A DNA stretch of 64,000 nucleotides from Escherichia phage vB_EcoM-pEK20. The translations under genes were made by a program, and so were the position numbers. Below the pieces are notes generated by a model. That model saw only the letters and a list, made by a program, of their open reading frames with translations. It was not told the origin of the DNA and ran no database searches. The DNA lies in sequence record MZ868638.1. One strand, 5' to 3'. Within the stretch, counting starts at the first letter, position 1. Each line of letters opens with the position of its first letter. Below are positions 34 through 59,423 of this stretch, piece after piece.

Positions 34-315
34 ATGAAAACATATAGTGAATTTTTATCAGAATCTATTCTTAACGAAGCTACTGACACATTTGCAACTA
101 AGCTAGGTGCAGCTTTGGTTGAAGCTGAAAGTTTATTAGCACGTATTTCTGAACTTGCTAGTAAGATAGATACTCGCAAATTTGAGCGCACCAGTGATAT
201 CGTTAAGCTTGAAGCCTTGTTGCGTATGTGCGATAAACCGGAAGAAATCGCTAAGAACGGCTCGCTGATGAAACAACGTCTTGAAAAATATATTTCAGGC
301 GCTTCAGAAAAATAG
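34..315 (+). CDS. Internal-protein-like, capsid-targeted (N-terminal CTS MKTYSEFLSE)
   Basis: ORF 19-315, internal ATG at 34; N-terminus matches T4 internal protein capsid targeting sequence MKTYQEFIAE with LxE prohead protease site; sits upstream of denV like ipII/ipIII. Confidence 0.5.
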   Translation: MKTYSEFLSESILNEATDTFATKLGAALVEAESLLARISELASKIDTRKFERTSDIVKLEALLRMCDKPEEIAKNGSLMKQRLEKYISGASEK

Positions 316-316
316 T

Positions 317-346
317 GTTTACTTCCTCCAAGGGTTTTGATACTAT
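317..346 (+). promoter_or_regulatory. T4-type early promoter (GTTTAC -35, TACTAT -10); spacer TTCCTCCAAG is inverted repeat of RBS region CTTGGAGGAA at 361-370
   Basis: GTTTAC at 317-322, 18-nt spacer, TACTAT at 341-346, immediately upstream of denV. Confidence 0.45.
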
Positions 347-373
347 ACATTCATCAACTACTTGGAGGAAATT

Positions 374-787
374 ATGACTCGTATCAATTTAACACTTGTT
401 TCTGAACTGGCCGACCAACATCTTATGGCTGAGTATCGTGAATTACCACGCGTATTTGGTGCAGTCCGTAAACATGTTCAAAACGGTAAACGTGTAAAGG
501 ATTTTAAAATCTCTCCAACATTTATCTTAGGCACAGGTCACGTAACATTCTTTTACGACAAACTCGAATTTTTACGTTTACGCCAAATCGAGCTAATCGC
601 TGAATGCTTGAAACGTGGTTTCAAAATCAAGGACACGACTGTCCAGGATATTTCCGACATCCCTGCCGAATTTCGTAATAATTATGTCCCGTCCGAAGCG
701 TCCATTGCGATAAGTCAAGCACGCTTAGATGAAAAAATTGCTCAACGTCCGACTTGGTACAAATACTATGGTAAATCAATTTACTAA
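374..787 (+). CDS. denV: Endonuclease V, pyrimidine-dimer DNA glycosylase / AP lyase
   Basis: Protein [35 protein letters not shown]... is near-identical to T4 DenV as recalled; start at internal ATG 374 of ORF 362-787. Confidence 0.95.
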
Positions 788-793
788 GGAAAA

Positions 794-910
794 ATGAAAA
801 TGTATCAAGAATTTATCATTGAAGCAGAGGCCAAAGGTCCTAAAGTAGATGTTGACGATATTGGATATGATTTTAACAACTTCGGAATTATTTCTGGCGG
901 TAAAGCTTAA
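794..910 (+). CDS. Small CTS-tagged peptide (38 aa), internal-protein-like
   Basis: ATG 794, MKMYQEFIIEAEAKGPK...; same N-terminal motif as neighbouring ORFs; below the 60-aa cut-off of the ORF track. Confidence 0.35.
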   Translation: MKMYQEFIIEAEAKGPKVDVDDIGYDFNNFGIISGGKA

Positions 911-913
911 ACG

Positions 914-943
914 GTTTACGCTTAAGTATTAATATGGTATAAT
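914..943 (+). promoter_or_regulatory. T4-type early promoter
   Basis: GTTTAC 914-919, TATAAT 938-943, upstream of ORF 974. Confidence 0.4.
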
Positions 944-973
944 TGCTCTATCAAAACAAACAAGGAAACAAAA

Positions 974-1288
974 ATGAAAACCTATAAAGAATTTATTGCA
1001 GAATCCGCCAACCAACGCGTTGAAGGTGGTTATATTTGGATTGAACAAGTTGAGCCACCGAGCCGCACTTCTACAGGTAAATGGAAAATTACTGTTGATG
1101 GTCCTGGTGGTAAACGTAGGACTCTTAAAGAAATTAATGGGTACTATGAAGAAGCTCTTTCGGATGCAGGAACTTACATGATGCAAATCATGATTAAAAA
1201 CCCTGAAAACCGTTTTGCAGCTAAAGTCTTCCGCCGTATTGGTAATAAACTTTATGATGCATATTCTAAAAACTTCCCTAAAGAATAA
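974..1288 (+). CDS. Internal-protein-like, capsid-targeted (CTS MKTYKEFIAE), 104 aa
   Basis: N-terminal CTS motif; rest has no family I can name. Confidence 0.5.
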   Translation: MKTYKEFIAESANQRVEGGYIWIEQVEPPSRTSTGKWKITVDGPGGKRRTLKEINGYYEEALSDAGTYMMQIMIKNPENRFAAKVFRRIGNKLYDAYSKNFPKE

Positions 1289-1314
1289 CATAAATTAAAA
1301 CAATAGGAAAAAAA

Positions 1315-1617
1315 ATGAAAACATATCAAGAATTTATTACTGAAGCGCGAGTGAGTGCAGGTAAATTAGAAGCCGCTATAAATAAAAAGGCCCATTCATT
1401 TCATGATTTGTCCGATAAAGACCGTAAGAAACTTGTAAGCCTTTATATTGACAAAGAGCGTATTCTCGCTCTTCCTGGCGCTAATGAAGGTAAACAGGCC
1501 AAGCCTTTGAATGCCGTCGAAAAGAAAATTGATAACTTTGCTTCTAAATTCGGTATGTCTATGGATGACCTTCAGCAAGCGGCTATCGAAGCAGCTAAAG
1601 TAATTAAAGGTAAATAA
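1315..1617 (+). CDS. Internal protein (T4 IP family), CTS MKTYQEFITE
   Basis: 100 aa; N-terminus and body resemble T4 internal protein sequences as recalled. Confidence 0.55.
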   Translation: MKTYQEFITEARVSAGKLEAAINKKAHSFHDLSDKDRKKLVSLYIDKERILALPGANEGKQAKPLNAVEKKIDNFASKFGMSMDDLQQAAIEAAKVIKGK

Positions 1618-1619
1618 CA

Positions 1620-1649
1620 GTTTACTTTCTCCTAGAATTGTGATAGTAT
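1620..1649 (+). promoter_or_regulatory. T4-type early promoter
   Basis: GTTTAC 1620-1625, TAGTAT 1644-1649; precedes denV-like remnant. Confidence 0.4.
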
Positions 1650-1674
1650 ATTCATAATTACTTGGATGGGTAAA

Positions 1675-1804
1675 ATGACTTATATTAATTTGACTTTAGT
1701 ATCTAAATTTGCTGATCAACATTTAATCGCCGAATACTGTGAATTGCCACGTGTTTTTTGGTATAATTCGTAAACACGTGGCAAAAATATTTACATTCAA
1801 ATAA
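1675..1804 (+). pseudogene. denV-like 5' remnant (N-terminal ~43 codons, frameshifted)
   Basis: [28 protein letters not shown] matches DenV residues 1-28; a T7 run at 1754-1759 shifts frame, +1 frame continues FGIIRKHV (DenV FGAVRKHV) then stops at 1802-1804. Confidence 0.6.
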
Positions 1805-1946
1805 AATGGGAACAACCTGGACCTCATGATTCTATGAGGGATTCCCGCCAACCTGTAATAAGGTCGAGCCCAAGTGCGGTAATGGGTAAATACAGAAATG
1901 GACAATTCATGCGCCACGGAACGGCCCCAACCTTAAGAGAAACTAA

Positions 1947-3619: not shown

Positions 3620-3918
3620 TGGCTCAAATCCTATCAGGCTTTGGAACTCATTATGAAGCATCTCGACGCATAACTGAAAGCAATCCTTTTGGCCTTGTTC
3701 CGAAGCACAAGAAAATTCAAAGCCTTGATGACTTTGAGAATCGCCTATGGGCCCTCTTTAATGAGTACAAGGCATATCTGAAAGAAGACGCTGACGATTG
3801 TCTTGAAGAAGATGAGATTGCGTATTACGAACAACGCCTTGAACAGCTCAAGAACTTCCACCAGGTTCGTGACGAAGTATCTAAAGCAGTTAAAAAGTTA
3901 ATTCCTTTCAAAGAGTAG
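3619..3918 (+). CDS. Hypothetical protein
   Basis: ATG 3619 overlapping upstream stop (TAATG). Confidence 0.3.
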
Positions 3919-3946
3919 TTTACTTCTCCTCTAGTTGTGTTACTAT
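3918..3946 (+). promoter_or_regulatory. T4-type early promoter with stem-loop (PeSL-like)
   Basis: GTTTAC 3918-3923, TACTAT 3941-3946; arm TTCTCCTCTAGTTG 3924-3937 pairs with CAACTAGAGGAGAA 3955-3968. Confidence 0.45.
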
Positions 3947-3974
3947 AGACCTGTCAACTAGAGGAGAAATCAAA

Positions 3975-7502: not shown

Positions 7503-7508
7503 TTTACT

Positions 7509-7537
7509 AGCCCCTTCCTTATGGTTGGGGCTTTTTG
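7509..7537 (+). terminator. Rho-independent terminator
   Basis: GCCCC 7510-7514 / GGGGC 7527-7531 hairpin followed by T5. Confidence 0.55.
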
Positions 7538-7547
7538 GCATTTAGCA

Positions 7548-7576
7548 GTTTACTTCTCCTCAGGTTGTGTTATAGT
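7548..7576 (+). promoter_or_regulatory. T4-type early promoter
   Basis: GTTTAC 7548-7553, TATAGT 7571-7576; spacer TTCTCCTC is inverted repeat of GAGGAGAA at RBS. Confidence 0.45.
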
Positions 7577-7603
7577 AGTCCTTACTTACTAGAGGAGAAC
7601 GTT

Positions 7604-10646: not shown

Positions 10647-10742
10647 ATGTGGGGACCTTCGGGTCCCTTTAGGGGGTTAAAATATTTAAAAAAGTGGTGT
10701 ACATGCTTTTAGGATATGTTATTATAGACCTATCGAAACGAA

Positions 10743-11744
10743 ATGAGTAAATTGGAGAATAAAATGTTCAACGTTCAAATCAAAAAAGGTATCTATCGTA
10801 ATAACGAAATCTCTGGTTCTTATGTTGCCACAAAGACCTGGTTCCCGGCAAAGCTTAATCCTGAATGTTCCCACTTAGGTGATGGTAAAATTTTCGTTAT
10901 GATTGATGGTTCTGAACGTGGAGTATGGGTCTTCAAATCAGACATCGTAATGGAAGGAGTTGAGACGTCACCAGTTGCAGTTGTTGAAAGCACTGAAGAT
11001 ATGAAAACTCGTATCAACAAACGCTTTAAAGTAATGAACATGATGACGAATGGCATTATCGATGGCAAAATTCGTTCACTCATTATTTCAGGTGCAGCCG
11101 GTATTGGTAAGACGTATTCTCTGGATAAAGCACTTAATAATGCTAATGATAACGGTTTCATCAAATACAAAAGCATTAATGGTAAAATCTCCGGTATTGG
11201 CCTTTACGAACAACTTTGGCTCAACCGTGATGCGGACAGCGTTCTCTTAATCGACGACGTTGACGTATTCTCGGATATGGACATCTTGAACCTTCTTAAA
11301 GCAGCATTAGATACCGGAGATAAACGCAAAGTTTGCTGGAGCACTGCGTCATCTTATCTCGATGATAAGGGTATTGATAAAGAATTTGAGTTTGAAGGTA
11401 CTATCGTTTTCATTACAAACGTTGATATCGATAAAGAGTTAGAACGCGGTTCGAAACTTGCCCCACACCTTCAAGCTTTAGTATCTCGTTCAGTGTATCT
11501 CGACCTTGGAGTACACTCTAATGAAGAGATTATGGTTCGAGTTGAAGATGTAATATTATCTACTGACATGATGCAGAAACGTGGTCTGACAGATGCAGAA
11601 ACGTATAAAGCATTGTCCTGGATGAAGGCTAACGTATCTCGTCTTCGCAATGTATCATTACGTACGGCTCTTTACGTAGCAGATTTTATTTCAACTGATA
11701 AAGATGGTTGGGAGGAAATCTCTGAAGTAACTTTACTGAAATAA
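10743..11744 (+). CDS. P-loop ATPase (Walker A GAAGIGKT, Walker B LLIDDVD)
   Basis: Motifs read from translation. Confidence 0.5.
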   Translation: MSKLENKMFNVQIKKGIYRNNEISGSYVATKTWFPAKLNPECSHLGDGKIFVMIDGSERGVWVFKSDIVMEGVETSPVAVVESTEDMKTRINKRFKVMNMMTNGIIDGKIRSLIISGAAGIGKTYSLDKALNNANDNGFIKYKSINGKISGIGLYEQLWLNRDADSVLLIDDVDVFSDMDILNLLKAALDTGDKRKVCWSTASSYLDDKGIDKEFEFEGTIVFITNVDIDKELERGSKLAPHLQALVSRSVYLDLGVHSNEEIMVRVEDVILSTDMMQKRGLTDAETYKALSWMKANVSRLRNVSLRTALYVADFISTDKDGWEEISEVTLLK

Positions 11745-11882: not shown

Positions 11883-12170
11883 ATGGATTTTATGCAAAAA
11901 ATTAAAGCCGCAGTAGAACTCTATGCTCATCGTATGGTTAGTTCTACAATGCAATATAGCGAGGAGGTTCGCCAGGACTCTTCCTTGAAAGGAAAAACTA
12001 AAGCCTTAATTACCTTAGATCGTTTGCAAAAGAATGCCATAGAGATGCTCCAGTACGACAAGGCTGTATATAAGAAAGAACAGGAAGAGAAACTTAAATC
12101 TGAAAAATTACAGAAAATTCCGAAATCGGTTTGGTTCAGTGGAAAAAATACCGAAAAAAGTTTCTTTTAG
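11883..12170 (+). CDS. Hypothetical protein
   Basis: ORF only. Confidence 0.3.
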   Translation: MDFMQKIKAAVELYAHRMVSSTMQYSEEVRQDSSLKGKTKALITLDRLQKNAIEMLQYDKAVYKKEQEEKLKSEKLQKIPKSVWFSGKNTEKSFF

Positions 12171-12172
12171 TT

Positions 12173-12201
12173 GTTTACAAGGTCTATAGTTATGTTATTA
12201 T
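12173..12201 (+). promoter_or_regulatory. T4-type early promoter with stem-loop
   Basis: GTTTAC 12173-12178, TATTAT 12196-12201, GGTCTATA/TATAGACC inverted repeat. Confidence 0.4.
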
Positions 12202-12228
12202 AGACCTATCAACTACTGGAGGTAAAAC

Positions 12229-12756: not shown

Positions 12757-12818
12757 ACGCTTTACCCAAGGACGGGTTATAATGGTTTTGAGTTCCAATT
12801 CAATCTGAGGAAATAGTT

Positions 12819-13814
12819 ATGAGCATTACATCTGATGCGGTAAAACATGAAATTAACGGTTTATGTGCTTCACAGATTAAAGTGTGGTTTAAAGACCATA
12901 ATGATCGCAGAGCACTTAATTATGAGCAAATTGCTATCCAAGTTCATCAATTACTGACTAGTAAATTTGATTTTCATATGCCGTCTGAAATTTATACTAA
13001 TCTACCACGAGCGCTTATTAAAGCGTGTAAAGGTTACGGAAAATCAATGGCCGATGGAATCTTCAGCGCGCTGAATAAACTTAACGTTCTGTCGATGATT
13101 AACTCTAACAACATCCTGCGTAATCTAGGACGTACTGATTTGTTCGGCCGTGAACAGTGTAAAATGCCTTTGAAATGGATTGTTGCTCATCTTAACGAGA
13201 ACCAAACACGTTTTATGGCCGTATCAGCACGCTTACAAATGGGTCTAGATCGTCAGATGAACTTTAAAACTCATCCACGTTATTCAGGTTCAACAGACTT
13301 TTATAAATGTGAGCTTCAAAAGGTTGCAGGTAAAACTGTCTTAGTAGTTCGTGTAACGTTTGAAGGACGACGTCAAGGATATTTTGACCTAATCGGCTCT
13401 GGACTTAAACATTGTGGATTTATTGACGAAGTTGATATCAAGCGAGACAGCATTGGATACCGTATTGGATATGTTTGTACTCTTAAAGAAGAGATTTCAG
13501 GACCAGCACCAGGACTAAAAGACGTTAGATATAAAGACGAACTCGTTGAAGAAATAAAAGAAGTTGAATATGATATCAACCAAGAAGATGCTCTTAAAGA
13601 CCTTATTGATGAACTAAACCAAGACGTTATTCCGGTTCAGAAATTTGAATCAAAACATGCTGAGCAAATCAAATACTTTGAAGCTTTGATTAACGAACTT
13701 AATGTAACTATTCAACAGACTGATGATGAAATCTCACGATTAGCAGGCTTAAACGGTAAAAATAAAACAGAACGAGCTAATCTTATCCAGGTAGTAAAAC
13801 TTCTTAAGGAATGA
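12819..13814 (+). CDS. Hypothetical protein with C-terminal coiled coil
   Basis: Charged heptad-like C-terminal ~60 aa. Confidence 0.35.
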   Translation: MSITSDAVKHEINGLCASQIKVWFKDHNDRRALNYEQIAIQVHQLLTSKFDFHMPSEIYTNLPRALIKACKGYGKSMADGIFSALNKLNVLSMINSNNILRNLGRTDLFGREQCKMPLKWIVAHLNENQTRFMAVSARLQMGLDRQMNFKTHPRYSGSTDFYKCELQKVAGKTVLVVRVTFEGRRQGYFDLIGSGLKHCGFIDEVDIKRDSIGYRIGYVCTLKEEISGPAPGLKDVRYKDELVEEIKEVEYDINQEDALKDLIDELNQDVIPVQKFESKHAEQIKYFEALINELNVTIQQTDDEISRLAGLNGKNKTERANLIQVVKLLKE

Positions 13815-13869
13815 TGTACAACCAAGGATGGTTGGAGTATAATAAATTTTTCAACATGAGGAATATAAA

Positions 13870-14805
13870 ATGGCTTCTATTACACGTAGAGAACTTATCA
13901 AAGAATTTACCTCGAACGCATATACCCCAGGACCTAATCCTATCCGTATGCCTGTAAAGACTCCTGAAGAGATTGAGGAAATCTGTTCATATTATGGGAT
14001 TAATTCTCGTAAGTTTACTCAATTTGAATGCGTTACTAACACACCCGTTAAAGAGTTCATTAAAAATGGTGAGTTCAGCCGTTTATTAGCCAAACAGAAA
14101 CTTCGTAATTTTTGTATTGGCGGTGAAGGACAATATTTCGCTAAGCAGTTCAGGAATAACCTTAACAATCTGATGGCCATTGCTTCTCGTATTCGTCCTC
14201 AAGCAATTAACATGAAACATTTGAAATATACTTACGATAAGTTAGAAATCATGGTTATCAGTGAGAACGAGTTCACTCTTACGTATAAACCTAAGAATGA
14301 TAACGTTGCTCGTGTATTCCACCAAGCGTTGGAAGTTTTAGGTGATAATATCCACCAGATTAAAGCAATTTATTCTCGTGAGCTTAATATTATCAACCCT
14401 ATCAAGAATAAGGGCCATATCGCTATCCAGGCTCGTGTATCTGTTGGTAAAAAGGTTCCTGCGCCATGGTGGCACAAAGACTCTGAATACTATCAAAATC
14501 TTAAAAAGGAAAATGCAACGTTCGAAGCGTCAATTACTACAACCCCAATTGGCAATGCTGAAGTTCAAGGTGCATATTTTACTGCTCCATCTATATACAC
14601 TTCACCGTCGACTAAACTGGAAATCTCTAACGGTCTTCTTCCTGCCGAAGATTACTATTATAATCAAATCAAAGCCACTGTGGACCAACTGTCTGTTGAA
14701 CTTGACAAAGCACAAGCTAAGCTTCGTGATGCTCAACAAGTAGTTACCAAGCTCCAGTTGCAGTACTCTAAACTTTTTAACGCAATGAATGCATTAAAAT
14801 CATAA
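13870..14805 (+). CDS. Hypothetical protein with C-terminal coiled coil
   Basis: Same architecture as neighbours. Confidence 0.35.
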   Translation: MASITRRELIKEFTSNAYTPGPNPIRMPVKTPEEIEEICSYYGINSRKFTQFECVTNTPVKEFIKNGEFSRLLAKQKLRNFCIGGEGQYFAKQFRNNLNNLMAIASRIRPQAINMKHLKYTYDKLEIMVISENEFTLTYKPKNDNVARVFHQALEVLGDNIHQIKAIYSRELNIINPIKNKGHIAIQARVSVGKKVPAPWWHKDSEYYQNLKKENATFEASITTTPIGNAEVQGAYFTAPSIYTSPSTKLEISNGLLPAEDYYYNQIKATVDQLSVELDKAQAKLRDAQQVVTKLQLQYSKLFNAMNALKS

Positions 14806-14809
14806 ATCA

Positions 14810-14839
14810 GTTTACAACCAAGGATGGTTGGAGTATAAT
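14810..14839 (+). promoter_or_regulatory. T4-type early promoter cassette (repeated)
   Basis: GTTTAC 14810-14815, TATAAT 14834-14839; about 48 nt identical to 57277-57324. Confidence 0.45.
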
Positions 14840-14867
14840 CTTTCTATCTTAACGAGAGGAAAATATT

Positions 14868-17267: not shown

Positions 17268-17438
17268 ATGCAAGTTAAATTATTGTACCGTTTATTAAAA
17301 AATGGCAAGCATGATTGGTATTTGCTTATTAAAACCGATCCGAATTTTTTCTCTGGACAACCATTTACAGTTCGTCCTACTAAACGTCAGCTTCGCAAAG
17401 CTAAACGTTCTCATCGTAACTTTTATAGAGAATATTGA
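17268..17438 (+). CDS. Small protein with basic C-terminal tail VRPTKRQLRKAKR
   Basis: Internal ATG of ORF 17241-17438; shares tail motif with 17863-18042 and 46456-46668. Confidence 0.35.
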   Translation: MQVKLLYRLLKNGKHDWYLLIKTDPNFFSGQPFTVRPTKRQLRKAKRSHRNFYREY

Positions 17439-17862: not shown

Positions 17863-18042
17863 ATGAAAACTGCATTATTTTTTGGCGAAAGAACAAACGG
17901 TCAAAAATCTTGGAAATTTGTTATAATTGGTGCTCCAAACAATCCGAACATGAGGACTTCAATCATTTCGGTAACACGTCCTACTAAAAGAATGATTCGC
18001 CAATACAAACGTTTTCATCGAGACTTTTATAACGTTTACTAA
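17863..18042 (+). CDS. Small protein with basic C-terminal tail TRPTKRMIRQYKR (paralog)
   Basis: 59-aa ORF not in track; same tail motif. Confidence 0.35.
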   Translation: MKTALFFGERTNGQKSWKFVIIGAPNNPNMRTSIISVTRPTKRMIRQYKRFHRDFYNVY

Positions 18043-18555: not shown

Positions 18556-20369
18556 AAATTGAAAAAGAAATTGAAGGATTAATTCATAAAACTAATAAAG
18601 ATCTTTTGAACGAGAATGCTAATAAAGATTCTCGTGTTTTTCCAACTCAACGGGACCTTATGGCTGGTATTGTGTCTAAGCACATTGCCAAAAATATGGT
18701 CCCGTCTTTTATTATGAAAGCACATGAAAGCGGAATTGTCCATTTCCATGATATTGATTATTCCCCTGCTCTTCCATTTACTAATTGCTGTTTAGTAGAT
18801 TTAAAAGGAATGCTTGAAAACGGGTTTAAGCTAGGTAATGCTCAAATTGAAACGCCTAAATCGATTGGTGTTGCTACTGCAATTATGGCACAAATTACCG
18901 CACAGGTTGCTTCACATCAGTACGGCGGAACGACTTTTGCTAATGTAGATAAAGTACTTTCTCCTTATGTTAAACGCACCTATGCAAAACATATTGAGGA
19001 TGCAGAAAAATGGCAAATCGCTGATGCGTTGAATTATGCCCAATCTAAAACAGAAAAAGACGTATACGATGCATTTCAAGCTTATGAGTATGAAGTAAAT
19101 ACTCTTTTTAGCTCAAACGGTCAAACGCCTTTTGTAACAATTACATTTGGTACTGGAACTGACTGGACTGAACGAATTATTCAGAAAGCAATTCTTAAAA
19201 ACCGCATTAAAGGCCTTGGTCGTGATGGAATAACTCCTATTTTCCCTAAACTTGTTATGTTCATTGAAGAGGGTGTCAATCTTTATAAAGACGACCCGAA
19301 CTATGATATTAAGCAGCTTGCTCTAGAGTGTGCAAGCAAAAGAATGTATCCTGATATTATTTCAGCTAAGAACAATAAAGCTATCACTGGTTCATCTATT
19401 CCTGTTTCTCCAATGGGTTGTCGTAGTTTCTTGAGTGTATGGAAAGATTCGACTGGAAATGAAATTCTTGATGGACGTAATAATCTTGGTGTTGTAACAC
19501 TGAATCTTCCTCGTATTGCGTTAGATTCTTATATTGGAACACAATTCAATGAACAGAAATTTGTTGAGCTATTTAATGAACGAATGGATCTGTGTTTTGA
19601 AGCCTTGATGTGTAGAATTAGTTCTTTAAAGGGTGTTAAAGCAACAGTTGCTCCTATTCTTTACCAAGAAGGTGCATTTGGGGTTCGTCTTAAACCTGAT
19701 GATGATATAATTGAGCTATTTAAAAACGGTAGAAGTTCAGTGTCTTTAGGATACATTGGTATTCACGAATTGAATATTCTTGTCGGTCGTGATATTGGAC
19801 AGGAAATTTTGACTAAAATGAATGCTCGTCTTAAGCAGTGGACTGAAAGAACCGGTTTTGCTTTTAGCTTGTATTCTACTCCTGCTGAAAACCTGTGCTA
19901 TCGCTTCTGTAAACTTGATACTGAAAAATATGGAAGTGTAAAAGATGTTACTGATAAAGGCTGGTACACTAATAGTTTCCATGTTTCAGTAGAAGAAAAT
20001 ATCACTCCGTTTGAAAAGATTTCTCGCGAAGCCCCATATCATTTCATTGCGACTGGCGGACACATTTCTTATGTTGAACTTCCTGATATGAAAAATAACC
20101 TAAAAGGTCTTGAGGCTGTCTGGGATTATGCTGCGCAACATTTAGATTATTTTGGTGTTAATATGCCAGTAGATAAATGTTTTACGTGTGGAAGTACCCA
20201 TGAAATGACTCCTACCGAAAACGGATTTGTTTGTTCTATTTGTGGAGAAACTGATCCTAAAAAGATGAACACAATAAGAAGAACTTGTGGTTATCTTGGA
20301 AATCCTAACGAACGTGGATTTAATCTCGGCAAAAATAAAGAAATCATGCATAGGGTTAAACACCAATGA
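18552..20369 (+). CDS. nrdD: Anaerobic ribonucleoside-triphosphate reductase (glycyl radical enzyme)
   Basis: 605 aa, continuous ORF, C-terminal Zn/Cys motif and glycyl-radical region RRTCGY. Confidence 0.95.
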   Translation: MKIEKEIEGLIHKTNKDLLNENANKDSRVFPTQRDLMAGIVSKHIAKNMVPSFIMKAHESGIVHFHDIDYSPALPFTNCCLVDLKGMLENGFKLGNAQIETPKSIGVATAIMAQITAQVASHQYGGTTFANVDKVLSPYVKRTYAKHIEDAEKWQIADALNYAQSKTEKDVYDAFQAYEYEVNTLFSSNGQTPFVTITFGTGTDWTERIIQKAILKNRIKGLGRDGITPIFPKLVMFIEEGVNLYKDDPNYDIKQLALECASKRMYPDIISAKNNKAITGSSIPVSPMGCRSFLSVWKDSTGNEILDGRNNLGVVTLNLPRIALDSYIGTQFNEQKFVELFNERMDLCFEALMCRISSLKGVKATVAPILYQEGAFGVRLKPDDDIIELFKNGRSSVSLGYIGIHELNILVGRDIGQEILTKMNARLKQWTERTGFAFSLYSTPAENLCYRFCKLDTEKYGSVKDVTDKGWYTNSFHVSVEENITPFEKISREAPYHFIATGGHISYVELPDMKNNLKGLEAVWDYAAQHLDYFGVNMPVDKCFTCGSTHEMTPTENGFVCSICGETDPKKMNTIRRTCGYLGNPNERGFNLGKNKEIMHRVKHQ

Positions 20370-21771: not shown

Positions 21772-21880
21772 CCAGGTGCCGCCTGGTCTTCTTTATCTCA
21801 TTTCTAATATAATCCATTGGAATCTTCACTTCACTATCTCCTTGTGCCCCTCTCAAATCAAAAAATATTTTCATAAAACA

Positions 21881-21909
21881 GTTTACATCCTCAATAGATG
21901 TGTTAAGAT
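21881..21909 (+). promoter_or_regulatory. T4-type early promoter
   Basis: GTTTAC 21881-21886, TAAGAT 21904-21909. Confidence 0.35.
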
Positions 21910-21937
21910 TAAACCATCTACTATAGAGGAAAATAAA

Positions 21938-22120
21938 ATGACAATTGAAGATAAAGAAATTAAGGTCGACCAGTACTATTCTGTCAACGGTAGTGCAGTA
22001 CAGATAACCAGAGTTTCAAGCCTGGATGTTTGGTACCGTTCGATCAAATATCCAGAAATTGGTGAAATGCTTTGTGACCGTGGTATCTTCTGTTCAATTG
22101 CGAAGGAAATTAAGCCATGA
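21938..22120 (+). CDS. Hypothetical protein
   Basis: Internal ATG with SD. Confidence 0.3.
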   Translation: MTIEDKEIKVDQYYSVNGSAVQITRVSSLDVWYRSIKYPEIGEMLCDRGIFCSIAKEIKP

Positions 22121-23005: not shown

Positions 23006-23068
23006 TAATGTACAACGATAGGAAGACGTGTTATTATCTTCCTATCGTCTTAAAATGAGGAAAATATC

Positions 23069-23308
23069 ATGGAACAAGAATTAGACGTTATTACATCGAA
23101 AAAACGTCTTGAAGTCGTAGTGAATGGCTCAACTATTAAGTTTGTATATGACACTTTAACTGATGCTATTACCGTTAGTTGTGGTGGAAAGGCTTTTAGT
23201 CTAGATTCTACTGAAAACAAATACCCGTTCTATAAAGGTATCTTTGATATGGGTGTTGATATCAGTGTTCGTCAAGCAAACTATTTACATTATCTTATCA
23301 CGGAATAA
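23069..23308 (+). CDS. Hypothetical protein
   Basis: ORF only. Confidence 0.3.
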   Translation: MEQELDVITSKKRLEVVVNGSTIKFVYDTLTDAITVSCGGKAFSLDSTENKYPFYKGIFDMGVDISVRQANYLHYLITE

Positions 23309-23376
23309 TGCACAAACTCTTGAGAGCAGAGTATAATGCTCTCTCATTGGATAATAAAATAACCGAGGAAAATAAT

Positions 23377-24199: not shown

Positions 24200-24271
24200 T
24201 ATCTCGTGCTTTAAGATAGGTCTCTAAATATTATGATATAATAGACCTATGAATTGAGCTAAGAGGTACTT

Positions 24272-26836: not shown

Positions 26837-27090
26837 CTTTAGATGAATTTAACAATGCTGGACTCAGGCTTGAAGTTGAAATGGACGTTAAAGATGATGA
26901 TGGATTCGAGAACACTATCAAGTATTGGATTGAGCCATTACGTGTTGAAGGCAATGAAGTTAAAGCAGTTCATGTCTGCACCGACTGGGCTATTGAATTT
27001 AGCTTTAATATAATGGACAACGATACTCCTGGCTCTATTCTTAAAATGGCTGAAGCGTGTATTGAGGACGCGTATAATGACGAAGACTGA
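26833..27090 (+). CDS. Hypothetical acidic protein
   Basis: ORF only. Confidence 0.3.
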   Translation: MTLDEFNNAGLRLEVEMDVKDDDGFENTIKYWIEPLRVEGNEVKAVHVCTDWAIEFSFNIMDNDTPGSILKMAEACIEDAYNDED

Positions 27091-27937
27091 CTATGAAACT
27101 CAAATTTATAAAATTCTTAAAACCTCCTTCCCTTCGTGGGAAGGACTTGATGAGTATTTAAACTTTATAAAAACTAATTCCACTAATAAAGTAAAAGGAC
27201 TGACTCAGGTTCACCATATACTACCAAAATCTATTTTTCCAGATTTTAAAACATGTAAATGGAACTTGTGTCATTTAAGTCATTATAACCATTTTATTGC
27301 ACATAGCATTTTGGCAAAAACTGGCAACCACAAGATGATTAACGCGCTTCAAAGAATGTATACCGGGCGATTTAATTTAAATTGTACAACGCATGAACTA
27401 AATAATATAGCCGAGGCGTATTCTTTAGAATTCGAAAATGTTTGTAAAGTTAATTCTATAAAAATGACATTATACTATTCCAATCAGGATAATAGAATTA
27501 AGATTAGTCAAGCTTTAAAAGCATGGTTTAAAAATCCGGAAAATTTAAAGAAACATAGAATTATGACAAGTTCAAAGGAATTTAAAGAAACCGTCTCTAT
27601 TATGACCCAAAAGTGGTTTAGTGACCCTATTAATAAACAAAAACATTTGGATGCTTGTCGTAAAATATCTAAAACAACCGAATATAGAGAATCATTATCG
27701 GCTGGAGTTTCACGCAGTTGGAAAAATCCTAAAGTTAGAGACACTCATTTGAAATCTAGAAGAAAAGGATATCATTGGGAAAATTTTGATATGCTTTACG
27801 TTGAATGGGTTAAAATGAACAAACCTAAATATGTAACTTTTTCTAAAAATTTAGTCAATTTAGGATATCCTATACAAAGTTCTTTACAGGCTTTAGTTTC
27901 TGAATTCATGAGGAAAAATTTAAGTGAAAACATTTAA
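27077..27937 (+). mobile_element. Free-standing HNH homing endonuclease gene (mob-like) between genes 47 and 46
   Basis: HNH motif VHHILPKS...N...L...H...H; C-terminal repeated WxNP...KH modules; overlaps GTG start of gene 46. Confidence 0.55.
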
Positions 27938-29612: not shown

Positions 29613-29666
29613 ACGCTTTAACACGATGTGGTTATAATGACCACATCAAATTAAATGGAGAACAAC

Positions 29667-30284: not shown

Positions 30285-30324
30285 TAAATTTGTTAAACTT
30301 TGAATTGTCTTGAAAGGAAATAAA

Positions 30325-31011
30325 ATGAAACTGTCTAAAGATACTATCGCTATTCTGAAAAACTTTGCCTCTATTAACTCCGGCATTCTGCTGAGTCAAG
30401 GTAAATTTATTATGACTCGTGCAGTTAATGGCACAACTTATGCGGAAGCAAATATCTCTGATGAAATTGATTTTGACGTAGCACTTTATGATTTGAATAG
30501 CTTCTTAAGCATTTTGAGTCTAGTGTCTGATGATGCTGAAATTTCAATGCACACCGATGGCAATATTAAAATTGCAGATACACGTTCCACGGTTTATTGG
30601 CCTGCCGCTGACAAGAGCACCATTGTTTTTCCTAATAAGCCAATTCAATTTCCAGTGGCTTCTGTGATTACTGAAATTAAAGCTGAAGACCTTCAACAAT
30701 TGCTTCGAGTTTCACGTGGTCTTCAGATTGATACAATTGCTATTACAAATAAAGATGGTAAAATTGTTATCAATGGCTATAATAAAGTTGAAGATTCTGG
30801 ACTAACTCGTCCTAAGTATTCTTTGACTCTTACCGATTATGATGGTTCTAACAACTTTAACTTCGTAATCAATATGGCTAATATGAAAATCCAGCCAGGT
30901 AACTATAAAGTAATGTTGTGGGGAGCTGGTGATAAAGTTGCAGCCAAGTTTGAAAGCTCTCAAGTAAGTTATGTTATTGCGATGGAAGCCGATTCTACTC
31001 ACGACTTCTAA
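30325..31011 (+). CDS. 45: Sliding clamp gp45
   Basis: 228 aa from ATG 30325, near-identical to T4 gp45. Confidence 0.9.
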   Translation: MKLSKDTIAILKNFASINSGILLSQGKFIMTRAVNGTTYAEANISDEIDFDVALYDLNSFLSILSLVSDDAEISMHTDGNIKIADTRSTVYWPAADKSTIVFPNKPIQFPVASVITEIKAEDLQQLLRVSRGLQIDTIAITNKDGKIVINGYNKVEDSGLTRPKYSLTLTDYDGSNNFNFVINMANMKIQPGNYKVMLWGAGDKVAAKFESSQVSYVIAMEADSTHDF

Positions 31012-45430: not shown

Positions 45431-45435
45431 TAAAA

Positions 45436-45456
45436 AGGAGACTTCGGTCTCCTTTC
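45436..45456 (+). terminator. Rho-independent terminator (UUCG loop)
   Basis: GGAGAC-TTCG-GTCTCC then TTT. Confidence 0.5.
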
Positions 45457-45518
45457 GGGGTTTACATCTTCCTCTAGGCATGATATGATGTACTTACACA
45501 AACCAAGAGGAAAACATT

Positions 45519-45893
45519 ATGAATATGTCTCAAGCAATTTTTACTGCAATCACCGAAAACACAACTGTTGAAGTAGTTTCTCCGCTGGCAACCTACGTTA
45601 TTCTTGCTCCTAAAACTATTGTATCTCGTATGGAAAACATGGGCAAACGTATCGTACAAATTGTTGGAGCCGGAAATCAAAAACTTGATTATCTGCGAAC
45701 CATCAAAGCTTATGAACATTTCCAACTCGAAAAAGGTTCTCCTATCCAGGTAGAACTCGTAAATGGTGATATTGTTCGAGCAATGTTCCATCATTTCTAT
45801 GCATTGAATGACCCATCTAAAGCGGTTCGTTTAATTGCATACGACGCAAACCAAAACGAAATCAACGCAGATGTATCTAAATTACGTTTTTAA
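45519..45893 (+). CDS. Hypothetical protein
   Basis: ORF only. Confidence 0.35.
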   Translation: MNMSQAIFTAITENTTVEVVSPLATYVILAPKTIVSRMENMGKRIVQIVGAGNQKLDYLRTIKAYEHFQLEKGSPIQVELVNGDIVRAMFHHFYALNDPSKAVRLIAYDANQNEINADVSKLRF

Positions 45894-45922
45894 GTTTACT
45901 TCTCCAGTAGTTGTGTTATTAT
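45894..45922 (+). promoter_or_regulatory. T4-type early promoter with stem-loop (PeSL-like)
   Basis: GTTTAC 45894-45899, TATTAT 45917-45922; TTCTCCAGTAGTTG pairs with CAACTACTGGAGAA 45931-45944. Confidence 0.45.
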
Positions 45923-45948
45923 AGACCTATCAACTACTGGAGAACAAA

Positions 45949-46454: not shown

Positions 46455-46455
46455 T

Positions 46456-46668: not shown

Positions 46669-46728
46669 CTGTTTACAAGCACCACATACTGTGTTACTAT
46701 CTTTTTATCAACTACAGAGGAAATTGAA

Positions 46729-47097: not shown

Positions 47098-47158
47098 TTG
47101 GTTTACACCAAAGTTAAAATAAGATACTATAAACATAACAAATCAAGAGGAAATTAAC

Positions 47159-47764: not shown

Positions 47765-47765
47765 C

Positions 47766-48416: not shown

Positions 48417-48417
48417 A

Positions 48418-52602: not shown

Positions 52603-52818
52603 AAGAGAAATTGAAAGAGAAATTCTTACTAGAAATCAAGGAAAAAGACTTTGAGACATGGTATCGAATGGTGAAAGGGCTGACATTGCTTTTTAAAGCA
52701 TCGTTATTCATGTTAGAACAACCTGGTCCTGATGGGCCTTTAGTAGGAAAGCTTAAAAAGTAGTTTACATTCCCTCCTCTCGTGTTATGATAGGCTTATC
52801 TTTAAATGGAGGTCTATC

Positions 52819-53400
52819 ATGACATGTCAATCTGAACTTCAAGAACGCGAATACCTAACAAATCTGATTGATAGCAAATTCACCCGCCAAGAACAAAACA
52901 TTCTCTGGGCCTGCACCGATTCTAAGGAAGACCCGGATTTCCACTATGAATTAGACCATCTTGTTCGTAAGCATATGACTTCTACAGTGCCAGTAGAACT
53001 CTACCGTGGTGTAACTCCAGAAGAAGTAGAACGTCTTTCCCTTCTTTCTGTGGGATGCCATTGGTCTCCTGGACGAGTAACATCGTTCACAACTGATTTC
53101 AGTACAGCTCGTCAATTCTCCGGGAGATGGGAATATCAGACGTACACTATTCTTAGTCTCAGGAATGCTCCATTCATTTTTGATTACTACCAAAACATGG
53201 TTAACATTGTACTTGCCGGAAAGAACCCTAAGCATGTTATGGAAGAAACGCGTGTTGACGTCCTAGATATGATTGAATCTGAACAAGAATACATGGTCTC
53301 AGGTATCTCTAGATTTGAGATTGTGGAAATTGAAGAGTTAGAGTATGACCCTTTGTCTCGAGTATACAAAATCATTCACTTAAAGATGTTGAATTTTTAG
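52819..53400 (+). CDS. modB: ADP-ribosyltransferase, ModB-like (R-S-E class)
   Basis: LYRGV (Arg), FTTDFSTA (S-T-S region), EQEYMV (E-x-E); position after gene 56 like T4 modB. Confidence 0.5.
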   Translation: MTCQSELQEREYLTNLIDSKFTRQEQNILWACTDSKEDPDFHYELDHLVRKHMTSTVPVELYRGVTPEEVERLSLLSVGCHWSPGRVTSFTTDFSTARQFSGRWEYQTYTILSLRNAPFIFDYYQNMVNIVLAGKNPKHVMEETRVDVLDMIESEQEYMVSGISRFEIVEIEELEYDPLSRVYKIIHLKMLNF

Positions 53401-56598: not shown

Positions 56599-57276
56599 AT
56601 GAGCACTGATGTTATTATAGATTTTGAAACATTCGGCAATACATCAAAAGCGGCTGTTATTGACCTTGCGGTTATTGCATATAATTCCGACCCTGAAGTT
56701 GTTGAATCATTTGAAGAACTTGTTCAACGAGGTAAGCGAATTAAATTTAATTTAGCTTCTCAGAAAGGGAAGCGAGTTTTCGCTAAATCCACTATGAAAT
56801 GGTGGAAAGAACAATCGGCTGAAGCACGTAAAAACTTGGCTCCGTCTGAAGACGATGTCACTACGCTTGAAGGCATTAAAATCTTTTTAGACTATTGCCG
56901 AGCTAATAAAGTTGACCAATGGAAATCACAGATGTGGTGTCGTGGTATGAGCTTTGACTTCCCGATATTGGTCGATTTGATTCGTGACCTCTATCGTGAT
57001 GAAGGTGTTCCTGAACCAGAGATTGATACTGATAAATTAGAACCGGTTAAATTCTGGGCTCAACGTGATATTCGTACGGCAATCGAAGCTTACTCGTTGA
57101 CACGAGGATTAAGTATGTGTCCATTACCGATGGGTACGCTAAAAGGATTCGTTGCCCATGATAGTATTCATGATTGTGCTAAAGATATTTTGATGTTAAA
57201 ATATGCTCAGCGTTATGCGCTTGGTCTTGAAGATGTCCCTGAGAATCCTGACCCGTTAAGTGTAAAACAGCGATAA
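56599..57276 (+). CDS. dexA: Exonuclease A (DEDD 3'-5' exonuclease)
   Basis: IIDFETFG exo motif I and HDSIHDCAKD motif; position after dda. Confidence 0.8.
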   Translation: MSTDVIIDFETFGNTSKAAVIDLAVIAYNSDPEVVESFEELVQRGKRIKFNLASQKGKRVFAKSTMKWWKEQSAEARKNLAPSEDDVTTLEGIKIFLDYCRANKVDQWKSQMWCRGMSFDFPILVDLIRDLYRDEGVPEPEIDTDKLEPVKFWAQRDIRTAIEAYSLTRGLSMCPLPMGTLKGFVAHDSIHDCAKDILMLKYAQRYALGLEDVPENPDPLSVKQR

Positions 57277-57281
57277 AATCA

Positions 57282-57311
57282 GTTTACAACCAAGGATGGT
57301 TGGAGTATAAT
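57282..57311 (+). promoter_or_regulatory. T4-type early promoter cassette (repeated)
   Basis: GTTTAC 57282-57287, TATAAT 57306-57311; about 48 nt identical to 14805-14852. Confidence 0.45.
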
Positions 57312-57341
57312 CTTTCTATCTTAACCAAACGGGAAACAATT

Positions 57342-57836
57342 ATGAATATCAATACTACGTCTACTTACATCCTGAAAGACGAAAAACAAATCAACTGGTA
57401 CGGTGCTTCAGTGCGAGCTTATGAAAAGTTTTGTGAAATTTTAGGTGCCACTCAAGGTAATAGTTTCACTATTGTTAACTTCATTAAACAAGTTGAAGGC
57501 CCTTGGTTATTCTTAGAAATTAAAAATTCATACGGTACAATTTCTACTACTGCCATCCCAAGCACCGACTTTGAACTGTTGATTGAAGAAGCACCTGTTA
57601 AAGATGGTCTCCACTTTGATATGGATATCGTTTGTATGTACGGTACTCTGATTAAGCCTATTGAGCCTACTGATTTATTGTGTAAATATGTTTCAATTCG
57701 ACGCCCATTCGATGGTCCAGTAAATGGATGGGTAACTGACCAGTGGATTGAAGATGGGGTTGAACTTCTGAACGTTGTTCATGCCGGTGATTTTAGTGTG
57801 GTTCCACGTAGTGCAGTAGTTAATATTCTAAATTAA
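57342..57836 (+). CDS. Paralog family member A (C-terminal DQWIEDGVELLNVVHAGDFSVV motif)
   Basis: One of three tandem paralogs. Confidence 0.4.
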   Translation: MNINTTSTYILKDEKQINWYGASVRAYEKFCEILGATQGNSFTIVNFIKQVEGPWLFLEIKNSYGTISTTAIPSTDFELLIEEAPVKDGLHFDMDIVCMYGTLIKPIEPTDLLCKYVSIRRPFDGPVNGWVTDQWIEDGVELLNVVHAGDFSVVPRSAVVNILN

Positions 57837-57897
57837 TGTTGTACATCCAAGGATGGATGGAGTATAATGAATTCAATTTAACAAAGAGAGAAAAATT

Positions 57898-58362: not shown

Positions 58363-58782
58363 ATGAATATTGTAAATCTCTCTACAGGTGATTACGTATA
58401 TGTATCTGTTGCTTCTCGCTCTAAAGTTGCCGGGAAGTTGGTTGAAGTTCTTTCTGTGAGTGATCCGGTTTTTGGTCGTAACCAAGTTAAAGTTCGTGAC
58501 GCCGATGGTAACATTGGTTACGTTAAAAGCCAATTTATTGAACCAGAAGAAAAAGCGTTCAAATGGAAACTGGGCAGATCAGTTTTAGTTGTAAAAGACT
58601 ACGAGTTCACCATTGCCGCTGCGACAGATGGAACACCGTGGACAACGAATCAAGTTGCTGGTTTTATTTCGGACCAATGGGTAGAAGATGGTGTTAAGCT
58701 TTATAACATTGTTTTCGCTGGGCAGTTCATGGTAGTTCCTGAGTTCCAAATCAAAAAATATTGTCCAGCATCTTTTGCATAA
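58363..58782 (+). CDS. Paralog family member C (ISDQWVEDGVKLYNIVFAGQFMVV)
   Basis: Tandem paralog. Confidence 0.4.
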   Translation: MNIVNLSTGDYVYVSVASRSKVAGKLVEVLSVSDPVFGRNQVKVRDADGNIGYVKSQFIEPEEKAFKWKLGRSVLVVKDYEFTIAAATDGTPWTTNQVAGFISDQWVEDGVKLYNIVFAGQFMVVPEFQIKKYCPASFA

Positions 58783-58841
58783 AGTTGTTTACTTCTCCTC
58801 CGGTTTTGATATTATAACCATATCAACCAGAGGAGAATAAT

Positions 58842-59366: not shown

Positions 59367-59423
59367 TGTACAACAACTATGGTCTATGATACTATAGACC
59401 TATCAAAACAAGAGGAGAATATT

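Follow-up and report, generated by a model that had tools for sequence, protein, structure and literature searches.

Early-promoter cassettes as probable homology patches and preferred points of gene exchange in the early region of a Mosigvirus phage

Does an intergenic unit that recurs letter for letter 42 kb away in the early region of a T4-type phage take part in gene gain and loss, or is it a promoter that selection has held to one form? The question arises between nrdC.5 and nrdC.3 of Escherichia phage vB_EcoM-pEK20 (MZ868638.1), where the first-pass annotation had likened such a unit to the promoter-early stem-loop (PeSL) cassettes of T4-type phages (Arbiol et al. 2010, PMC2839356; Comeau et al. 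2014, PMC4122927). The window (the whole 64,000-nt stretch analysed) is the early region of a Mosigvirus (RB69-like, T4-type), sharing 97-99% identity with Mosigvirus genomes and its gene order with RB69 from e to rIIA.1; gene names were transferred from RB69, and eight relatives were compared for gene gain and loss. No Rfam family matched anything within the window. A scan of IMG/VR with a 28-nt core matched a single contig, and no population sample came from IMG/VR.

The repeats are, with good probability, standard intergenic control units of the T4-type early region that serve as homology patches for general recombination. The window contains about 27 intergenic cassettes of 55-65 nt each, in the order stop codon, GTTTAC -35, spacer, TAnnnT -10, Shine-Dalgarno (SD) and ATG. 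In the proposed unit, an A-rich upstream element would follow the stop codon, the spacer would measure 17-18 nt and a leader of ~27 nt would hold the SD. Most of the 27 have a stop codon that abuts or overlaps the -35 and an ATG 26-30 nt after the -10. That these are early promoters of the GTTTAC/TATAAT kind, as had been proposed, is borne out by GTTTAC-N17/18-TANNNT, which occurs 23 times in the window where 1.9 would be expected and has 21 of these copies on the coding (+) strand. A generic TTGACA/TATAAT scan gave no overall enrichment (67 vs 65 and 66 vs 68 expected), the enrichment being confined to the GTTTAC form. The 20 nt upstream of the -35 contain 73% A+T compared to 63% window-wide, with A favoured 4-8 nt before the hexamer. 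With their GTTTAC -35, TAnnnT -10, A-rich upstream stretch and position directly 5' of early genes, the cassettes match T4-type early promoters, whose A-rich UP element lies near -42, and are consistent with the 57 early promoters predicted in RB69 (Nolan et al.). Promoter activity, with a start site ~7 nt after the -10, is a prediction from the sequence. Early-type cassettes are confined to 313-23376 and 45431-59423; none occurs at 24-45 kb (genes 55 to 41), and MotA-box promoters take their place there. A bias toward plastic regions, with few copies in conserved core blocks, is a trait shared with PeSLs, and the T-even PeSL consensus TTTACW-N17-TAYWAT fits the window cassettes.

The unit that raised the question, its relatives and the genes that they enclose are as follows.

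12757..12818, + strand: cassette between nrdC.8 and nrdC.6; hairpin ACCCA-AGGA-CGGGT, of the same type as in the 50-nt unit
13808..13857, + strand: cassette A1, between nrdC.6 and nrdC.5
13870..14805, + strand: nrdC.5 (DUF7235), cargo between A1 and A2
14804..14853, + strand: cassette A2 (the 50-nt unit in question), between nrdC.5 and nrdC.3, an exact repeat; -35 GTTTAC 14810-14815, hairpin 14815-14830, -10 TATAAT 14834-14839, nrdC.3 ATG 14868
57276..57325, + strand: cassette B1 (identical 50-nt copy), between dexA and motB.1; -35 57282-57287, hairpin 57287-57302, -10 57306-57311, ATG 57342
57342..57836, + strand: motB.1 (motB family), cargo between B1 and B2
57833..57882, + strand: cassette B2, between motB.1 and motB

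The repeat had been placed at 14805-14852 and 57277-57324 with a length of 48 nt; it is exact, as claimed, but is 50 nt long and begins 1 nt further left. It has two copies only (14804-14853 and 57276-57325), with 0 occurrences expected from 100 dinucleotide shuffles, and likeness reaches the upstream stop codon if a 1-nt indel is allowed, as in ATAA(A)ATCAG. The 50-nt unit is the top sigma70 match in each region scanned, agreeing with 11 of 12 consensus positions. Variants had been suspected near 13817-13850 and 57836-57870, and A1 and B2 are indeed there, each 68% identical to the unit over 50 nt. All of them share the near-identical core GTACA(A/T)CCAAGGATGG(T/A)TGGAGTATAAT, whose decamer CCAAGGATGG is present in 4 places (0.03 expected); a literature search for this hairpin motif returned nothing relevant. 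A1 has the hairpin and -10 core of A2, but its -35 (ATGTAC) is weaker and its 3' part differs; the B2 hairpin reads CATCCA/AGGA/TGGATG, with a compensatory A-T to T-A change.

Promoters selected toward one optimum, with recombination incidental and of no evolutionary consequence, might be thought to suffice for such likeness. T4 early promoters do have an extended consensus beyond the -35 and -10, according to a review, and many cassettes are only 60-78% identical to each other. A2 and B1, however, agree at 50 of 50 positions, including spacer and leader positions that vary freely in other cassettes, and selection would also have to account for hybrid cassettes with halves from two parents, for a three-nucleotide block polymorphism common to two loci and for the deletion junction of nrdC.5 in 21 records. 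Junction sequences already contradict this account, and we regard it as very improbable.

Cassettes could likewise have multiplied, without exchange between unrelated sites, as genes were duplicated in tandem along with their promoters, and motB.1, motB and the next gene are tandem paralogues with one cassette each. As the main source of the copies, such duplication is nonetheless unlikely, as the identical A2 and B1 flank unrelated genes (nrdC.5 and nrdC.3 at the one, dexA and motB.1 at the other) and the nrdC genes have no detectable similarity to each other. In addition, T4 motB is preceded by a different type of cassette, that found in the window at 23309 in another gene context.

A second group of repeats had been noted at 12194-12221 and 45915-45942. 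The 28-mer GTTATTATAGACCTATCAACTACTGGAG is exact at both places and belongs to an 8-copy, 63-nt family that includes 3906-3968, 58775-58837 and the related 59385-59423, so that the relatives proposed at 3938-3968 and 59395-59420 fall within family copies. These and other cassettes of the window are listed here.

313..376, + strand: cassette upstream of denV; anti-SD/SD pairing; folding z -3.6
3906..3968, + strand: cassette upstream of regB; anti-SD/SD hairpin of 14 bp, 3924-3937 with 3955-3968, the -10 in the loop; z -4.9
7503..7603, + strand: terminator hairpin (AGCCCC...GGGGCTTTTT), then an anti-SD/SD promoter cassette
10647..10763, + strand: terminator, then a GTGTAC promoter cassette, upstream of nrdC.10
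12161..12223, + strand: cassette upstream of nrdC.8; holds the 28-nt repeat; hairpin GGTCTATA/TATAGACC across the -10
21869..21937, + strand: anti-SD/SD cassette; ORF 21938-22120 directly downstream
23006..23068, + strand: cassette; hairpin GATAGGAAGA/TCTTCCTATC across the -10; z -4.5
23309..23376, + strand: cassette; hairpin GAGAGCA/GCTCTC across the -10
45431..45518, + strand: terminator, then an anti-SD/SD cassette, after gene 41
45882..45944, + strand: cassette with the 28-nt repeat at 45915-45942; anti-SD/SD hairpin in which spacer TTCTCCAGTAGTTG (45900-45913) is perfectly complementary to CAACTACTGGAGAA (45931-45944), SD included; z -5.7
46669..46728, + strand: early-promoter cassette; ORF 46456-46668 directly upstream
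52761..52821, + strand: cassette upstream of modB; early promoter, member of the 63-nt family
58775..58837, + strand: cassette upstream of motB.2; anti-SD/SD pairing; z -4.8
59367..59423, + strand: cassette upstream of cef; carries the common right half TACTATAGACCTATCAAAAC

Evidence that cassettes are used for exchange comes from the relatives, in which gene gain and loss bounded by cassettes, with crossovers inside them, upholds the earlier view of these units as PeSLs that mediate gene shuffling; the repeats themselves are as long and as identical as that view had assumed. The gene nrdC.5 is missing from 21 of 155 related records (AV109 and 20 others). The junction in these records consists of the left half of A1 and the right half of A2, with the crossover within the common 27-nt core. 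In moha, an inserted stretch brings the left half of an A2-type cassette, along with 22 nt from the end of nrdC.5, to the A1 position. AV109 also lacks motB.1, of which a half cassette remains. Two further events run from cassette to cassette: the cassette at 10647..10763 is a hybrid of the two that surround ORF102c in RB69, and ORF 23069-23308 is deleted in AV109 and AV112 with its left edge in the 23006 cassette and its right edge in the 23309 cassette. Other cassette-bounded events lie at 3914, 7509-7537, 21941 and 46648. The regB cassette forms the right edge of an ORF replacement in RB69, AV109 and AV112; AV109 has a 594-nt insertion at 7503..7603, between two terminator copies; JN02 and AV112 lack ORF 21938-22120, the gap running from ATG to ATG; and AV109 lacks ORF 46456-46668, with the break ~20 nt before the -35 of the 46669 cassette.

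Altogether, 17 of 70 indel breakpoints fall in cassettes, which make up 4.1% of the window, compared to 2.9 expected; judged against gene boundaries instead of all positions, the excess is about 1.5-fold (32% observed, 21% expected). The crossover position varies by event among the core, the -10, the -35 and the upstream A/T region. Non-cassette repeats also cause indels, among them coding repeats at 17373/17977 and internal-protein (IP) leader repeats at 970/1311. Five or more insertions are due to homing endonuclease genes, and the IP locus of the window (790-1850) shows gene swaps. Cassettes are preferred, not exclusive, exchange points. As dispersed repeats of 25-65 nt in the same orientation, located exactly at gene boundaries, they point to general homologous recombination of the phage using them as homology patches. 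An exchange between adjacent cassettes deletes or inserts whole genes, as the junction sequences show, and would leave a working hybrid promoter in place; a dedicated recombinase would be unnecessary.

Could the cassettes rather be active mobile elements, in which a dedicated protein reads the hairpin and carries out site-specific excision and integration, perhaps through mini-circles, in an integron-like manner? The inverted repeat of the 50-nt unit (CAACCA-AGGA-TGGTTG, 14815-14830) lies entirely between the -35 and -10, and its general form NNCCA-AGGA-TGGNN occurs in early- and middle-type promoters of both T4 and Mosigvirus. The cassette at 12757, which has its T4 counterpart upstream of nrdC.7, carries this type of hairpin behind a MotA-box-like GCTTTA and is by its sequence a putative middle-promoter version. 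In an alignment of 10 short sequences from the window, relatives and T4, both partners have changed in four of the six pairs, one of the pairs takes all four Watson-Crick forms and 90% of cells are paired vs 68% in shuffles; the AGGA loop and the closing CCA/TGG never vary, in contrast to the covarying outer pairs. The break between B1 and B2 in AV109 shows no homology, two alleles are common to loci 42 kb apart, and mini-circles were detected in RB49 by Arbiol et al. (2010, PMC2839356), who raised the idea. Clean junctions inside stretches of identity are, on the other hand, what homologous exchange predicts, unrelated coding repeats of similar length (17373/17977) yield a like deletion, and cassette types with different hairpins all participate. 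Across the syntenic 64 kb of six relatives, the annotations list neither an integrase nor a site-specific recombinase, and the only recombination genes among them are general ones (uvsX, 46/47, 49). Mobility of this kind is quite improbable, and cassette exchange appears to depend on homology. Somewhat speculatively, NNCCA-AGGA-TGGNN could be a putative recognition element for some factor, encoded by the phage or its host, that acts on RNA or ssDNA and would mark this cassette subfamily and promote its exchange. This is a reading to which we assign little probability; if true, it would explain why the subfamily makes up 3 of the 6 events bounded by cassettes on both sides, and also why alleles are common to loci 42 kb apart.

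The two distant copies had themselves been named as recombination substrates, and this holds in part. As drivers of viable deletions they are excluded: recombination between A2 and B1 would remove the essential genes 43, 45, 44, 62, 41, uvsX, 46, 47 and 55 and is therefore not viable. What appears to occur instead is an exchange of alleles between the two loci. The block after the -10 reads CTTT or GAAT at both loci, depending on the genome, and this three-nucleotide block polymorphism, with the same two alleles at both, indicates occasional gene conversion. Continuous homogenisation was rejected, as database-wide identity bands show many genomes, about 49 records at the least, to carry both alleles, one per locus; a within-genome test of concerted evolution in 7 genomes gave p=0.048. 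The conversion signal is that of one or a few events, and the allele pattern is best read as occasional conversion followed by reassortment. Distant copies would convert one another now and then.

What the hairpins do is a separate matter. A hairpin is present in most cassettes and probably belongs to one of three types. In the first, an anti-SD (TTCTCC...) formed by the promoter spacer would pair with the SD, leaving the -10 in the loop; in the second, the hairpin is predicted across the -10; the third, represented by the 50-nt unit, would have the small conserved NNCCA-AGGA-TGGNN hairpin in the spacer. Folding z-scores of the first two range from -2.5 to -5.7. Hairpins span the -10 in the 3918, 45894, 58787, 8000, 23006 and 23309 cassettes, and in about one third of all cassettes the stem specifically pairs the anti-SD with the SD, at -13 to -25 kcal/mol. 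Spacers bind their own leader more strongly (-9.7 kcal/mol) than leaders of other cassettes (-7.4 kcal/mol; permutation p<5e-5). Covariation backs both the hairpins across the -10 and those between the -35 and -10. In folding predictions, the SD is free of pairing with a probability of 0.00-0.21 in read-through RNA and of 0.58-0.84 in RNA from the own promoter. RNA arriving from upstream would conceal the ribosome site, while RNA begun in the loop would leave it free. Sequence and folding together place the cassettes at 317, 1620, 3918, 7548, 21881, 45460, 45894 and 58787 among such ribosome-binding-site (RBS)-sequestering elements. The claim that the inverted repeat reaches the RBS is accordingly right for the second family (3918, 45894, 58787), to which pairing of an anti-SD spacer with the SD is restricted, and fails for the 50-nt unit, whose 6-bp hairpin ends short of the RBS. 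The fold of the intergenic stretch around the latter is no stabler than shuffles (z -0.5 and -1.0), and its spacer ranks 13 and 9 of 27 cassettes in binding its own leader. An RBS-sequestering role of that hairpin is ruled out by folding, SD accessibility and spacer/leader pairing.

Hairpins that sequester an RBS and contain a promoter are known from T4 e, soc, 49 and I-TevI (PMC3014915). They share with the window cassettes a 5' arm upstream of the start site and a 3' arm over the SD, and in both the prediction is that translation is limited to transcripts begun within the hairpin. Theirs, however, are late or middle promoters that delay expression, whereas the internal promoter in the window is early; such logic would insulate genes from read-through rather than time their expression. 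Alternatively, the hairpins could be chiefly terminators or attenuators that insulate genes, as proposed for RB49 PeSLs, and not translational gates. An RB49 PeSL stem-loop was as effective as rrnB T1 in lowering the expression of a downstream lacZ, as described in the PeSL literature, and the stability of the anti-SD/SD stems would suit this function. Yet the T-run of an intrinsic terminator follows no cassette hairpin and a terminator scan calls none of them, so that the role shown for RB49 may not carry over. True terminators with T-runs exist as separate hairpins upstream of four cassettes (7503, 10647, 45431 and 51252 regions; cassettes 7548, 10697, 45460 and 51295), and the 3' arm of the cassette stems is the SD itself, as in the four T4 genes. 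Termination as the main function is the less probable reading, and we lean toward the translational gate.

Compared to known systems, the cassettes fit the published PeSL picture, and the principle, known since 2010/2014, is not new. Of the five published stem-loop positions the commonest are between the -35 and -10 or overlapping the -10, and the window likewise combines a sigma70-type early promoter with a stem-loop at these places. Further common traits are 'half' cassettes at some junctions and a position at the edges of the indels and replacements that distinguish close relatives. The window copies differ by belonging to an RB69-like genus outside the analysis of those papers, by stems that lack T-runs and are not the polyG/polyC of RB49, and by the anti-SD/SD stem in part of them. 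Shuffling at the T-even IP locus (Repoila et al. 1994, as relayed in PMC2839356) similarly involves an early promoter, a stem-loop and a conserved leader around interchangeable genes; in that account the homology includes a coding leader, whereas the cassettes considered here are purely intergenic. Integron attC cassettes and lambdoid 'morons' are comparable as single genes with their own expression signals between conserved linkers, but the window cassettes have no integrase or attC-type site.

As the principle was published in 2010 and 2014, the value of these observations is its confirmation in another genus together with three details: the anti-SD within the promoter spacer, the conserved spacer hairpin common with T4, and the alleles common to distant copies. 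The nrdC.5 and motB.1 polymorphisms provide two clean natural junctions from which exchange rates could be measured. Since the linker is the promoter itself, every recombinant would retain a working promoter and ribosome site, which shows how a T4-type phage swaps accessory genes with their expression intact.

Sequence identity to Mosigvirus (RB69-like, T4-type) coliphages is 97-99%. All genes lie on the + strand, in an order that begins with e and denV, continues with the nrdC cluster, 49, nrdD, 55, 47, 46, 45, 44, 62, regA, 43, uvsX, 41, dda, dexA and the motB genes, and ends with 39 and rIIA.1. At the gp46.1 position between genes 47 and 46 lies an ORF of ~286 aa without Pfam match (27062-27937), which may be a mobile gene; AV112 alone shares it, and in seven relatives 215 nt of unrelated sequence take its place. 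Repeat search recovered the repeat flagged in the first-pass annotation as what and where it had been described, although it measures 50 rather than 48 nt and lies one base off the positions first read. It occurs exactly twice in the window (14804-14853 and 57276-57325), where chance predicts none, and with a 1-nt indel allowed the match extends back into the preceding gene's stop codon. Its family has five copies (50 nt; 908, 13808, 14804, 57276, 57833). The second family has eight (63 nt; 3906, 7536, 10685, 12161, 21869, 45882, 52751, 58775), and the 28-mer reported for it was found as an exact match at 12194-12221 and 45915-45942. Four cassettes of the first family are referred to by name, with flanking genes in RB69 nomenclature:

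13808-13857, between + strand genes: A1, nrdC.6 / nrdC.5 interval
14804-14853, between + strand genes: A2, nrdC.5 / nrdC.3 interval
57276-57325, between + strand genes: B1, dexA / motB.1 interval
57833-57882, between + strand genes: B2, motB.1 / motB interval

The motif GTTTAC-N17/18-TANNNT was observed 23 times against 1.9 expected, 21 of the 23 on the coding strand. Listing every intergenic gap revealed a regular 55-65 nt unit: the -35 adjoins or overlaps a stop codon, the -10 comes next, and an ATG is reached 26-30 nt past the -10. A/T predominates in the 20 nt before the -35, and A is preferred 4-8 nt ahead of the hexamer, which fits the UP element of T4 and RB69 early promoters. All 27 early-type cassettes fall within 313-23376 or 45431-59423, and the replication-gene block between these regions uses MotA-box middle promoters instead. 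MotA-box (GCTTTA) promoters at 12757-12818, 24200-24271 and 29613-29666 have hairpins in or across spacer and -10, much as in the elements reported as 'PmSL' from Vibrio phage nt-1.

Eight relatives were compared with the window, AV117, HY126, JN02, AV109, RB69 and AV112 by full-length alignment and moha and NicPhage in part, yielding 35 distinct indel or replacement events (70 breakpoints). Early cassettes, which make up 4.1% of the window including a ±12 nt margin, hold 17 of the 70 breakpoints against 2.9 expected. Of the 35 events, eleven or twelve reach into a cassette, including six with a cassette at each end. Under the fairer gene-boundary null, the enrichment is ~1.5-fold (17/53, 32%, compared with 27/129 boundaries with cassettes, 21%). 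Junction sequences are stronger evidence than these counts. In AV109, which lacks nrdC.5, the left part of A1 continues into the right part of A2 with the switch in their common 27-nt core, a junction that 21 of 155 records match in one unbroken stretch. The same phage lacks motB.1 and retains B1 as far as GGAG, without the -10, joined to the whole of B2 at a break without homology; this remnant matches the 'half PeSL' (promoter-early stem-loop) of Comeau et al. The ORF at 23069-23308, between cassettes 23006 and 23309, is absent from AV109 and AV112. Cassette-bounded gene gain and loss, expected if the shuffling proposal applied, is seen in related phages, with crossovers inside the cassettes. 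The window cassette at 10647-10763 combines parts of both cassettes found on either side of ORF102c in RB69. In moha an extra ORF precedes nrdC.5 and is followed by 22 nt from the 3' end of nrdC.5 and by the left half of an A2-type cassette, which joins an A1 right half. The ORF directly after cassette 21869 is absent from JN02 and AV112, the one ending just ahead of cassette 46669 is absent from AV109, and the one ending at cassette 3918 is different in RB69, AV109 and AV112. AV109 also has a 594-nt insertion at 7509-7537, flanked by two copies of a terminator hairpin.

Exchange also occurs at other repeats, at microhomology and through homing endonucleases; recombination is therefore not confined to the cassettes. 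AV109 lost pin by exchange between two 55-nt repeats in coding sequence (17373, 17977), and internal-protein genes were exchanged at conserved leader repeats (970, 1311). The 55-nt repeat encodes a basic C-terminal tail, RPTKRQ.RK.KR..R, on three small ORFs (17373-17427, 17977-18031, 46609-46663). At the internal-protein locus (790-1850), leader repeats 790-825, 970-1005 and 1311-1346 border swaps 1002-1309 and 1345-1848, and 138 nt (46 codons) found in all six full-length relatives are missing from the first gene (794-910). HY126 has lost 503 nt inside modB (window 52862-53366); a cassette plays no part, since 5 nt of microhomology mark the break. Homing endonuclease genes account for five or more insertions in relatives. 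Insertions of 670-915 nt in AV109, AV112 and moha lie at 18556-18611, 20344-20366, 30287-30351, 60720-60735 and 62541-62546; several are annotated as homing endonucleases, and the window carries none of them. The cassettes are the commonest short repeats at places where crossover is harmless.

The direct repeats 42 kb apart had been proposed as recombination substrates, which probably holds for occasional exchange but not for viable deletion. Reciprocal A2 x B1 crossover was rejected as a route to the latter: genes 49 through dexA would be lost, including 43, 45, 44, 62, 41, uvsX, 46, 47 and 55, so that the product would not be a viable phage. A2 and B1 adjoin unrelated genes, and both are found across the genus, including RB69. 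The 4-base block after the -10 reads CTTT at both loci in the window, AV117, HY126, JN02, AV112 and RB69, and GAAT at both in moha and NicPhage. Identity bands in two database searches indicate at least ~49 records with one copy of each type, among them ST0, PNJ-6, p000y and SA35RD (A2 GAAT, B1 CTTT); each locus thus segregates for the same pair of alleles. The simplest explanation of this distribution is a minimum of one block transfer between the loci, followed by ordinary inter-phage recombination, which suggests occasional sequence exchange with no continuous upkeep of identity.

The hairpins fall into three types. In type (a) (317, 1620, 3918, 7548, 21881, 45460, 45894, 58787), the promoter spacer is an anti-Shine-Dalgarno (anti-SD) sequence (TTCTCC...) that pairs with the SD-containing leader, the loop holding the -10; stems reach 14 perfect pairs and folding z-scores range from -2.5 to -5.7. 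Predicted folding gives an SD unpaired probability of 0.00-0.21 in read-through RNA and 0.58-0.84 in RNA starting ~7 nt past the -10. Spacers bind their own leaders more strongly than those of other cassettes (-9.7 vs -7.4 kcal/mol, p<5e-5), and the pairing is therefore maintained cassette by cassette. In type (b) (8000, 12173, 23006, 23309, 47412), a hairpin across the -10 leaves the SD uncovered. Type (c) comprises the flagged unit together with its relatives and has only CAACCA-AGGA-TGGTTG, within the spacer. For the flagged unit, the intergenic fold does not outperform shuffles (z -0.5 and -1.0) and the binding comparison found no special spacer-leader pairing; an inverted repeat reaching the RBS is thus the wrong description here, but the right one for the second family. 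A terminator scan of the window cassettes found no T-run after the hairpin; true terminators are separate, upstream of four cassettes. The type (b) cassette at 23309-23376 (ACAAACTCTTG, stem, AGAGTATAAT, stem) has a counterpart of the same kind in T4 (~1655-1725 of the T4 sequence L017, upstream of motB); its gene contexts differ between the two genera and its stems show compensatory changes (GAGAGC/GCTCTC vs GGGACC/GGTCCC).

In anatomy and behaviour the window cassettes match PeSLs (RB49/phi1; extended to PST/T4 and nt-1/KVP40), and the T-even PeSL consensus TTTACW-N17-TAYWAT suits them; RB69 early promoters had already been predicted in 2006. The repeats are confirmed and their PeSL reading is supported, with length, coordinates, the extent of the flagged hairpin and the role of the pair 42 kb apart corrected. 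The anti-SD/SD cassettes would operate, on paper, like the T4 e, soc, 49 and I-TevI hairpins, although the internal promoter is early here and late or middle there. Terminator activity and mini-circles have been shown for RB49 PeSLs; a terminator role seems doubtful for the window copies because T-runs are missing. The window cassettes add members to an already known class of elements and are unsurprising to a T4 specialist.

Despite its unremarkable fold stability, the small spacer hairpin of the flagged unit is real, as sequence comparison shows. B2 has the compensatory change CATCCA/TGGATG, the nrdC.8-nrdC.6 cassette has ACCCA/TGGGT downstream of a MotA-box-like GCTTTA, and three nrdC intergenic regions of T4 have AGCCA/TGGCT, CCACA/TGTGG and TACCA/TGGTA, the loop being AGGA in all. 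Among ten distinct sequences, 90% of cells are paired (shuffles, 68%); both sides have changed in four of the six pairs, and one pair shows all four Watson-Crick types. Neither Rfam nor a literature search returned anything for it. Where the 3' arm starts (window 12775 and equivalents), the base is T or C depending on cassette copy and genome (window nrdC.8-6 cassette, B1 of AV117 and HY126, A2/B2 of AV112, B2 of RB69). With C the sense-strand pair is broken, but the antisense strand could still pair G-U. This conserved spacer hairpin, shared with T4, is the loose end most worth following.
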